Counted from the stretch's first letter, positions 62,819 through 64,000 are shown. The stretch: DNA of 64,000 nt from Flavobacteriaceae bacterium (GCA_947373225.1 CANBWX010000002.1:4970-68969), one strand, 5' to 3'. A program made the numbers and translations. Notes: generated from the letters alone by a model not told the origin.

Positions 62819-64000
62819 ATGAAATACAATCCGAACGAAATAGAGGCCAAATGGCAAAAATATTGGGCCGAAAATCAAACTTTTGCAGCACAGAATAATT
62901 CCCAAAAACCAAAATATTATGTTTTAGACATGTTTCCTTATCCATCAGGAGCGGGACTGCACGTTGGTCATCCACTGGGTTACATCGCTTCTGACGTATA
63001 TTCGAGATACAAGAGACATCAAGGTTTCAATGTTTTGCATCCTATGGGTTACGACAGTTTTGGTTTGCCTGCCGAACAATATGCTATACAAACCGGCCAA
63101 CGTCCCGAAGATACCACATCGGTAAATATTGACGGTGGCGTTGATAAAGATGGAAATAAAATTGCTGGATACCGAAAACAACTCGATAAAATTGGGTTTT
63201 CTTTCGATTGGAGTCGCGAAGTACGAACTTCAAATCCGGATTATTACAAACATACACAGTGGATTTTCATTCAATTATTCAATTCTTGGTATAATAAAAA
63301 AAGCGACAAAGCCGAAGATATTTCGACCTTGATTTCCATTTTCGAAAGTGAAGGAAATGCAAACATAAATGCAGTTTGCGATGACAATATTGCTGTTTTT
63401 TCGTCAAGCGAATGGAAAGCGCTTTCGACAGAAAACCAACAAAAAGTTTTATTACAATATAGACTGACTTATTTAGCCGAAACCGAAGTGAACTGGTGTC
63501 CCGGATTAGGAACAGTTTTGGCAAATGACGAAATCGTAAACGGGGTTTCGGAACGTGGTGGATTTCCTGTGATACGCAAGAAAATGACCCAATGGAGCAT
63601 GCGAATTTCGGCTTATGCAGAACGGTTGTTACAAGGTTTAGAAAAGATTGATTGGAGCGAAAGTATCAAAGAAAGTCAGAGAAACTGGATTGGGAAGAGT
63701 GTGGGAGCGATGGTGACGTTCCCCATCCTATCCTTCCCCGAAGGGGAAGAGAAAGCAAGTCTTGAGCAAAAAAGAGGATATATGACTGGTGGAAATAATT
63801 CTCATTTATTGCTTGAAAAAGCGAAAGAAATGCGAAATAACCCAACTGAGGCTGAAAAGATATTATGGTTAAATTTAAAGTCAAAAGCATTAGATTATAA
63901 ATTTAGACAACAACATTTAATTGATGACTATATTGTCGATTTTGTTTGTCTTTCTAAAAAGTTAGTAATTGAAGTTGATGGAGGAATTCACGATTTACAA
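62819..64000 (+). CDS. leuS: Leucine--tRNA ligase, 5' part (open to window end), with in-frame DUF559 insertion
   Basis: Manual translation: [13 protein letters not shown]...[16 protein letters not shown] (HIGH motif)...[13 protein letters not shown]...SFDWSRE...NWCP...[15 protein letters not shown], then foreign sequence. Absent from the ORF track because it has no stop in the window. Confidence 0.97.
63722..64000 (+). mobile_element. DUF559 (Vsr-like very-short-patch endonuclease) domain inserted in frame in leuS, preceded by a palindrome
   Basis: [19 protein letters not shown]...[31 protein letters not shown] is the DUF559 pattern; hairpin CTTCCCC-GAA-GGGGAAG at 63733-63749. Confidence 0.88.

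Follow-up and report, generated by a model that had tools for sequence, protein, structure and literature searches.

An in-frame DUF559 nuclease cassette bracketed by inverted GC-rich hairpin modules in the leucyl-tRNA synthetase gene of a Flavobacteriaceae bacterium

What is a GC-rich palindrome doing inside the reading frame of an aminoacyl-tRNA synthetase gene, and does it mark the end of a mobile unit? The palindrome lies near the end of the stretch of DNA analysed here, 64,000 nucleotides in length (hereafter the window; C2:4970-68969), in a Flavobacteriaceae assembly of 3.01 Mb, 178 contigs and 33.6% GC. An earlier note, made from the window alone, had placed it at the border of an insertion and proposed that it is the cis end of a mobile unit, with the DUF559 domain encoded beside it as the trans-acting enzyme. 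The host gene, leuS, runs off both the window and contig C2, of which 602 further bases lie beyond the window end. The features concerned are the following.

62819-64000, plus strand: host gene leuS, 5' part, encoding leucyl-tRNA synthetase; the open frame begins with an ATG at 62819; Pfam tRNA-synt_1, E 6.9e-22
63722-64000, plus strand: left 279 bases of the 438-bp in-frame cassette, delimited by filled versus empty LeuRS sites in relatives
63721-63749, plus strand: left terminal module, composed of the outer run CCCCATC (63721-63727), the linker CTATC (63728-63732) and the hairpin
63733-63749, plus strand: hairpin CTTCCCC-GAA-GGGGAAG, translated (S)FPEGE(E) in the leuS frame
63782-63784, plus strand: in-frame ATG preceded by AAAAAAGAGGATAT; start-context score -4.07
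63815-63997, plus strand: first 61 residues of DUF559 (Vsr-like PD-(D/E)XK, 'EDxHD'; Pfam PF04480); the domain continues to about window-equivalent 64123

The host protein of the window aligns with the LeuRS of 39 relatives, and comparison with 24 relatives without the insertion delimits the latter to 63722-64159 (438 bp, 146 codons). Its end, at window-equivalent 64159 (C2:69128), is outside the window and was read from the genome contig. The insertion takes the place of about 8 codons of a β-turn between ...GAxVxF and xxVFTTRPDT, a surface turn at the start of the CP1 editing domain; in the 24 cassette-free enzymes the site is a 31-residue stretch. The left boundary, 63721/63722, is exactly where the earlier note had put it, and the palindrome does mark where the inserted unit ends on the left. 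On the right, at the junction that reads ...DUF559...NAVVPPSGARG]IAVFTTRPDT in the LeuRS frame, there is a mirror hairpin, CCCCC-TTC-GGGGG-CTA-GGGGG (window-equivalent 64139-64159), which could not be seen from the window because it lies 139 bases beyond its end. The boundaries of the insertion coincide with inverted modules at both ends of the cassette.

The same LeuRS turn (equivalent to 63722) holds other small inserts in eight loci of the same genus (L008-L011, L016, L017, L019 and L022). Inserts at this turn in relatives are tandem heptamer arrays such as (GTCGAAA)n, other arrays being (GTTCTCC)3 followed by the inverted GGAGAAC, or (GTTTCAA)3 facing (TGAAACN)4. Repeat DNA of several kinds thus accumulates at this turn, which is a hot spot for it. 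A further LeuRS gene (L076; G048:C58:23500-32800), a single open frame of 1386 codons, carries two DUF559 cassettes at two sites.

The hairpin has the sequence and position first described (pyrimidine arm CTTCCCC, 63733-63739; loop GAA, 63740-63742; purine arm GGGGAAG, 63743-63749) and is read through as SFPEGEE, an element translated in frame in the manner of the Rickettsia palindromic elements, as had been suggested. The description of its stem as 7 bp and GC-rich stands only in part: there are 7 bp with a triloop, but the GC-rich C-G part is 4 bp long, the other three pairs being C-G, T-A and T-A. The folding energy predicted for single-stranded DNA (-6.3 kcal/mol, z = -2.0) is modest taken alone. 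The window of 64 kb contains CCCCNNNGGGG a single time, where shuffled sequences lead one to expect 0.10 and 9 of 100 of them have at least one occurrence, and the hairpin is the only CCCC-N3-GGGG of the window. It is the genome context, and not its own folding energy, that marks the hairpin as non-random: the whole genome contains 43 CCCC-N3-GGGG but 2 GGGG-N3-CCCC, nearly all of which come from one repeat family. Nor is the special C-GAA-G mini-hairpin, previously taken as the key feature, what these elements share, since the loop varies, with AAA as common as GAA and with CAA, ATA and tetraloops also present. The hairpin is only the inner part of the left module (63721-63749), which on the minus strand, as CTTCCCC-TTC-GGGGAAG-GATAG-GATGGGG, consists of a pyrimidine arm, a loop, a purine arm, a linker and a mirror run, the last with a mirror match of 6/7. 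The same left module is found in LeuRS cassettes of G202, G109 and other genera.

In the source genome as a whole, the 25-mer AGCCCCCTAACCCCCGAAGGGGGAA and its reverse complement TTCCCCCTTCGGGGGTTAGGGGGCT have 34 occurrences at up to 5 mismatches, among which are 11 inverted pairs with a spacing of 91-149 bp. DUF559 has exactly two matches in this genome, in leuS and metH, both in frame and module-flanked. The second interrupts methionine synthase MetH (...IEIYQ[APPAPEGG...DUF559...VLVPPSGVRG]LFLTLRQQ...), and on its right side this cassette ends in a module that agrees with the consensus of the dispersed repeat at 25/25 positions. When the AT-rich interiors of the short paired elements were compared, no homology was found and the ends alone are conserved; what is repeated is therefore the 25-nt module rather than a transposon-like unit, and the candidate explanation of transposon-like short elements with homologous interiors was rejected. 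Set against what is expected of a MITE or cut-and-paste transposon, the short elements have inverted ends, no consistent target-site duplication in the flanks of 11 of them, and no linked transposase. Solo modules may be decay products.

Several copies are located at gene junctions or within genes. Short inverted pairs are positioned precisely at gene junctions in the source genome, G000 (C81:11888-12016, C21:28893-29018, C48:18612-18731 and C96:7418-7540). At these junctions the left module supplies the TAA with which the gene before it stops, the next gene begins at an ATG within the AT-rich interior, and the right module is translated as an N-terminal PPSG(V/A)RG extension of HemE, Mpl/MurC-like and PabA-like proteins. 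Solo left modules, at C36:18742-18766 and C139:2320-2344 of G000, are in frame in MurG (SPLTPEGG) and in the linker of a UvrD/PcrA-like helicase (PPSPPTPEGG), with no nuclease and no partner module nearby. Another genome (G056:C34:201000-213100) has a dense array in which at least 14 modules (CCCCTTGAGGGGACTTTAGGGG) alternate in orientation, spaced by about 107 and 180 nt.

Modules follow a common grammar: a pyrimidine arm, a loop of 3-4 nt, a purine arm, a linker of 2-5 nt and a mirror-repeat run of purines and T. Among the GC hairpins beside DUF559, with both strands counted, the 5' arm is wholly pyrimidine in 252/274 and wholly purine in none. The third block was assessed in the 74 distinct units that have an A in the purine arm. 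As a mirror of this arm it scores 0.86 if A is kept and 0.83 if A is replaced by T, whereas a direct repeat reaches 0.76, and 45/74 informative units are perfect mirrors under one or the other rule. The pyrimidine arm, the purine arm and the mirror run, but not the loop, are conserved across modules. An alternative-hairpin switch, with the outer run pairing with the purine arm, was discarded, as the run in units with interrupted stems is a mirror and not a direct repeat; intrinsic terminators were likewise discarded, since no T-run follows the hairpins. No Rfam family matched at E up to 1.

Because the arms are pure pyrimidine or pure purine, they contain no stop codon in any frame, and only loops and linkers can hold one. 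Arms are translated into Pro/Gly-rich linkers (PPxPEGG ... PPSGxRG), and the linker is TAA in intergenic copies but CAA, CCG or CAG in those that are in frame. Modules can consequently live inside genes, and the cassette, with its stop-free ends, can occupy the LeuRS turn and be translated as part of the enzyme.

The enclosed domain belongs to DUF559: the truncated protein of the window matches PF04480 with E 1.3e-19 and the whole domain with E 9.4e-36 (123 bits against a cut-off of 20.6), and the D...ExD..H..D residues are present. Among structures in the PDB it matches 3HRL (E 3.6e-18) and 3R3P (I-Bth0305I; E 0.0039). D53, E64, D66, H70 and D77 are invariant in 49/49 embedded and 26/26 free copies. 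Between orthologous cassettes the dN/dS of the domain is 0.04-0.20, similar to that of the essential host flanks, and by these signs the embedded nuclease appears to be intact and kept functional by selection. The dS of the domain is below that of both flanks in 8/12 usable pairs; these estimates are noisy, and they hint at a more recent shared ancestry of the domain. Caulobacter VsrA, a DUF559 protein, takes part in DNA-damage and mismatch biology, the evidence for its endonuclease activity being indirect and obtained in vivo.

The suggestion that the nuclease could also be made as a free protein from the in-frame ATG at 63782 does not hold. With a position-weight model built from 1177 unambiguous starts, the context score of -4.07 falls at the 1st percentile of held-out true starts and at the 72nd percentile of internal ATGs. 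The Shine-Dalgarno-like core upstream does not help, for in the source genome, G000, such cores precede 2.0% of true starts versus 10.9% of internal ATGs; confident starts in that genome have A-rich leaders instead, as expected for Bacteroidota. The methionine is missing from many sister cassettes. Moreover, no stop codon follows the domain, so that initiation at 63782 would yield a fusion of DUF559 with the C-terminal part of LeuRS (about 700 residues) and not a free nuclease. The use of this ATG as a start is unlikely; more probably it is left over from a time when the DUF559 gene was free-standing and began there.

The proposed relation between hairpins and DUF559 was searched for within and across genomes, and the association is very strong. 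Our sample of the genus Flavobacterium contains 77 DUF559 copies, of which 28 are free-standing and the other 49 lie within large proteins. A perfect pyrimidine-to-purine GC hairpin is present within 200 nt on both sides of 53/77 copies, on one side of 16 and on neither side of 8, whereas 3.2% of 1475 control windows from the same loci contain one. At the level of whole genomes, a generic module pattern and strong PF04480 matches were counted in 201 genomes: at least 10 pattern matches are found in 46/84 DUF559-positive versus 7/117 DUF559-negative genomes (odds ratio 19, p = 5e-15, uncorrected for phylogeny). Exceptions exist in both directions. Nine DUF559-negative genomes have 6 to 71 pattern matches (71 in G120), and 12 DUF559-positive genomes have none, at least one of which (G009) has a different module subtype; G138 has an abundant module subtype without a cognate cassette. 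A wider sample, with one genome per species, comprises 80 relatives across Bacteroidota together with one Thiotrichaceae and one Leptospirales record; here hairpins lie on both sides of 61/80 copies, and 66/80 are embedded in frame. The hosts are LeuRS, IleRS, RecG, a UvrD-like helicase and MetH, the last with three sites; within LeuRS one and the same turn is used across many genera, among them Gillisia, Cellulophaga, Prevotella, Dysgonomonas and Chitinophagales. The module subtype broadly tracks the nuclease clade. Y1/RAYT transposases were rejected as the partner enzyme, as Y1 genes do not track modules: Y1_Tnp genes are present in module-free genomes, absent from the module-rich G091 and unflanked by modules in G000.

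Free-standing DUF559 genes have the opposite module topology, with the run facing the gene. This counts against a cis/trans relation between module and nuclease, which leaves the topology unaccounted for. One locus (L042; G010:C1:182500-193700) is a cluster in which three free-standing DUF559 genes are intact and a fourth copy is interrupted by an insertion; modules of the form CCCCTC-TTGA-GAGGGG-TT-GGGGG lie on both sides of each.

In phylogenetic trees the 49 embedded domains all fall into a single clade with 100/100 support, separate from two clades of free-standing copies. Host labels change 23 times on the nuclease tree, where 8 changes are the minimum and 83 are expected from shuffling; this clustering of host labels indicates that movement is rare and inheritance mostly vertical. 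The clade of UvrD-like helicase copies is nested among or sister to the LeuRS clades, and MetH copies of sites 1 and 2 are intermixed. As read from these trees, the cassette lineage has changed its host gene or site a few times. A placement of the leuS nuclease of G000 inside the helicase-host clade, seen in a tree of 75 rows, was toned down, since with 132 rows it is the helicase clade that lies beside or among the LeuRS clades, and support is weaker. Loss can be seen as well: in the leuS gene of G024 the right module is kept and DUF559 is gone, a route by which short or solo modules can arise.

Judged by its sequence, the module grammar is that of the class II intrastrand-triplex motif of the BoxC/PIT/TM repeats (Hoyne et al. 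2000, as reported in Holder et al. 2015, PMC4666352). All three blocks are present, a pyrimidine block, a complementary purine block and a third block that mirrors the purines with G over G and A or T over A. The genome consensus TTCCCCCTTCGGGGGTTAGGGGGCT also agrees with the motif in loop length (1-6 nt), in a G/C-rich stem of 6 nt or more and in the usual choice of TTA or CCG for the second loop, the 5-nt stems of the commonest subtype being at the short edge of this range. The E. coli consensus, named TMECO, is CCCTCNCCC-N3-6-GGGNGAGGG-N3-GGGNGAGGG with TTA or CCG as the second loop, and TMECO motifs also occur as inverted pairs (PMC4666352). The triplex fold itself was shown in vitro, by CD and NMR, for TMECO oligonucleotides (PMC4666352). 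In E. coli the motif is always intergenic and has no mobility gene nearby (Holder et al. 2015, PMC4666352), and DUF559 does not figure in that account of it. TMECO no. 9 (Holder et al., Table 1; 1351204-1351239) is located about 170 nt downstream of ycjD, the annotated DUF559 gene of E. coli K-12 (1351407-1351760, minus strand), and the stop codon of ycjD falls within an imperfect module. Between ycjD and TMECO no. 9 there is a second copy of some 40 bases from the 3' end of the gene (GGAGACGGTGCTGGAGAATATTC...; L105, 7300-7480), which, on the strength of the sequence, suggests a past rearrangement at the module.

Thus the E. coli repeats and the modules are alike in their three-block grammar, short loops, second loop TTA, G/C richness, occurrence both dispersed and as close inverted pairs, and in that TMECO no. 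9 adjoins the DUF559 gene ycjD. They differ in that the E. coli motifs are always intergenic and without a mobility gene, whereas the modules are translated in essential genes and bracket a nuclease; the stems of the modules are also shorter (5-10 nt) and their sequence is another one.

Taken together, we consider it probable, with some reserve, that the hairpin is the inner palindrome of the left module of a cassette that constitutes a selfish Vsr-like nuclease unit between inverted GC-rich modules. How such a unit might work is suggested by I-Bth0305I, a Vsr-fold homodimer with a 14-bp pseudopalindromic target (PMC3239194). By analogy, DUF559 is predicted to be a dimeric nuclease; it would recognise the palindromic module, as duplex or as extruded hairpin or triplex, and cut there, and recombinational repair from a cassette-bearing copy would then spread the nuclease gene or re-install it between module pairs. 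On this view the modules would act in cis and DUF559 would be the enzyme acting on them in trans, a relation like that of REP repeats to RAYT. That a dimeric DUF559 recognises and cuts the module, with repair spreading its gene between module pairs, seems to us nearly as probable as not, the evidence for DUF559 as the trans-acting enzyme of the palindromes being correlative. Homing by cleavage of the cassette-less allele is hinted at by the recurrent use of one LeuRS turn and by the lower cassette dS in 8/12 pairs. More tentatively still, we suggest as a possibility, less probable than the cleavage step, that DUF559 is the missing enzyme partner of BoxC/PIT/TM repeats, in a bacteria-wide nuclease-repeat system of which one Bacteroidota lineage came to be translated through inside essential genes.

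An alternative explanation is that the modules are an independent family, spread by host processes or by another enzyme, and that DUF559 is a passenger or parasite homing between module pairs without mobilising them. Module-rich genomes without DUF559, solo modules and the non-homologous interiors of module pairs all fit with it, as do the lack of a mobility gene near TMECOs (Holder et al., PMC4666352) and the fact that the left-module type in LeuRS is common to several genera while the nuclease it encloses is closest to that of another host gene. We nonetheless judge it unlikely, though it is the most serious of the alternatives: co-occurrence with DUF559 is very strong, the subtype broadly follows the nuclease clade, loss of DUF559 can yield solo modules, as in G024, and no other candidate enzyme tracks the modules, Y1 transposases included.

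Improbable, in our view, is that the cassette is an old, immobile and domesticated insertion in which DUF559 now works for the host, perhaps in repair as a nuclease or perhaps as an element of the LeuRS structure, the hairpins being linker-coding remnants. Its presence is patchy, with 12 LeuRS cassettes among the sampled matches from 201 Flavobacterium genomes and a plain 31-residue LeuRS turn in most relatives; the same cassette is found in five unrelated host proteins; the inverted symmetry of its ends is conserved at the DNA level beyond the needs of a linker; and the synonymous divergence of the domain is below that of both flanks in 8/12 pairs. In favour of domestication there are purifying selection on the domain as strong as that on the host flanks, mostly vertical inheritance with the same LeuRS turn filled in many genera, and the role of the Caulobacter DUF559 protein in DNA-damage and mismatch biology. 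Removal of the cassette after transcription or translation, like an intron or intein, is more improbable by far. Complementarity between its ends would allow them to pair in the RNA and bring the junctions together, and other nucleases of the DUF559 fold reside in introns and inteins; but the Rfam search up to E of 1 is negative, Pfam returns only the host domains (tRNA-synt_1 or helicase) and DUF559, with no intein blocks, the junction residues are not conserved nucleophiles, and the host frame is open through both ends in 115/115 embedded copies (49 + 66), which splicing would not require.

The selfish nuclease unit that we favour has partial counterparts among known systems. REP/REPIN repeats and RAYT transposases were reportedly described by Nunvar in 2010 and by Bertels and Rainey in 2011. 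As in the REP/RAYT pair, an enzyme gene lies between inverted hairpin repeats, enzyme-less singles and doublets are present in the genome, and repeats and enzyme co-occur at the genome level. Unlike it, the enzyme is a PD-(D/E)XK Vsr-like nuclease and not an HUH/Y1 transposase, and REPs are extragenic whereas modules are also in frame. The Rickettsia palindromic elements, reportedly the subject of work by Ogata and colleagues in 2000, are likewise palindromic selfish DNA in frame, translated as a tolerated peptide insert. They carry no gene, however, while the element studied here encodes a conserved nuclease domain, and it is not a member of that family, given its Bacteroidota host, unrelated sequence and lack of any Rfam or repeat-family match. 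With EDxHD or Vsr-like homing endonucleases (I-Bth0305I, PMC3239194) the cassette shares the nuclease fold and catalytic motif, and with homing genes in general the residence at conserved sites of essential genes (aminoacyl-tRNA synthetases, MetH, RecG) and signs of a cycle of gain, decay and loss. It differs from homing genes of introns and inteins in that neither surrounds it and that it is predicted to stay in the mRNA and protein, and from I-Bth0305I in that the extra DNA-binding domains of the latter are absent from the cassette, the ends of which are repeated elsewhere in the genome. Among the papers searched, none that mentions DUF559 describes such a cassette.

These findings account for the odd extra domains in Bacteroidota annotations of LeuRS, IleRS, MetH, RecG and helicases, and for contig breaks at module repeats in draft assemblies. 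The BoxC/PIT/TM repeats have remained unexplained since the 1990s, with no enzyme or origin tied to them, and DUF559 is itself very common while its function is unknown; a specific link would account for the repeats and the domain alike. If the proposal is true, it would represent a RAYT-REP-like system built on a Vsr-fold nuclease and triplex-capable ends, and a third way, beside introns and inteins, for such DNA to live in essential genes: in frame, with stop-free ends and without splicing.
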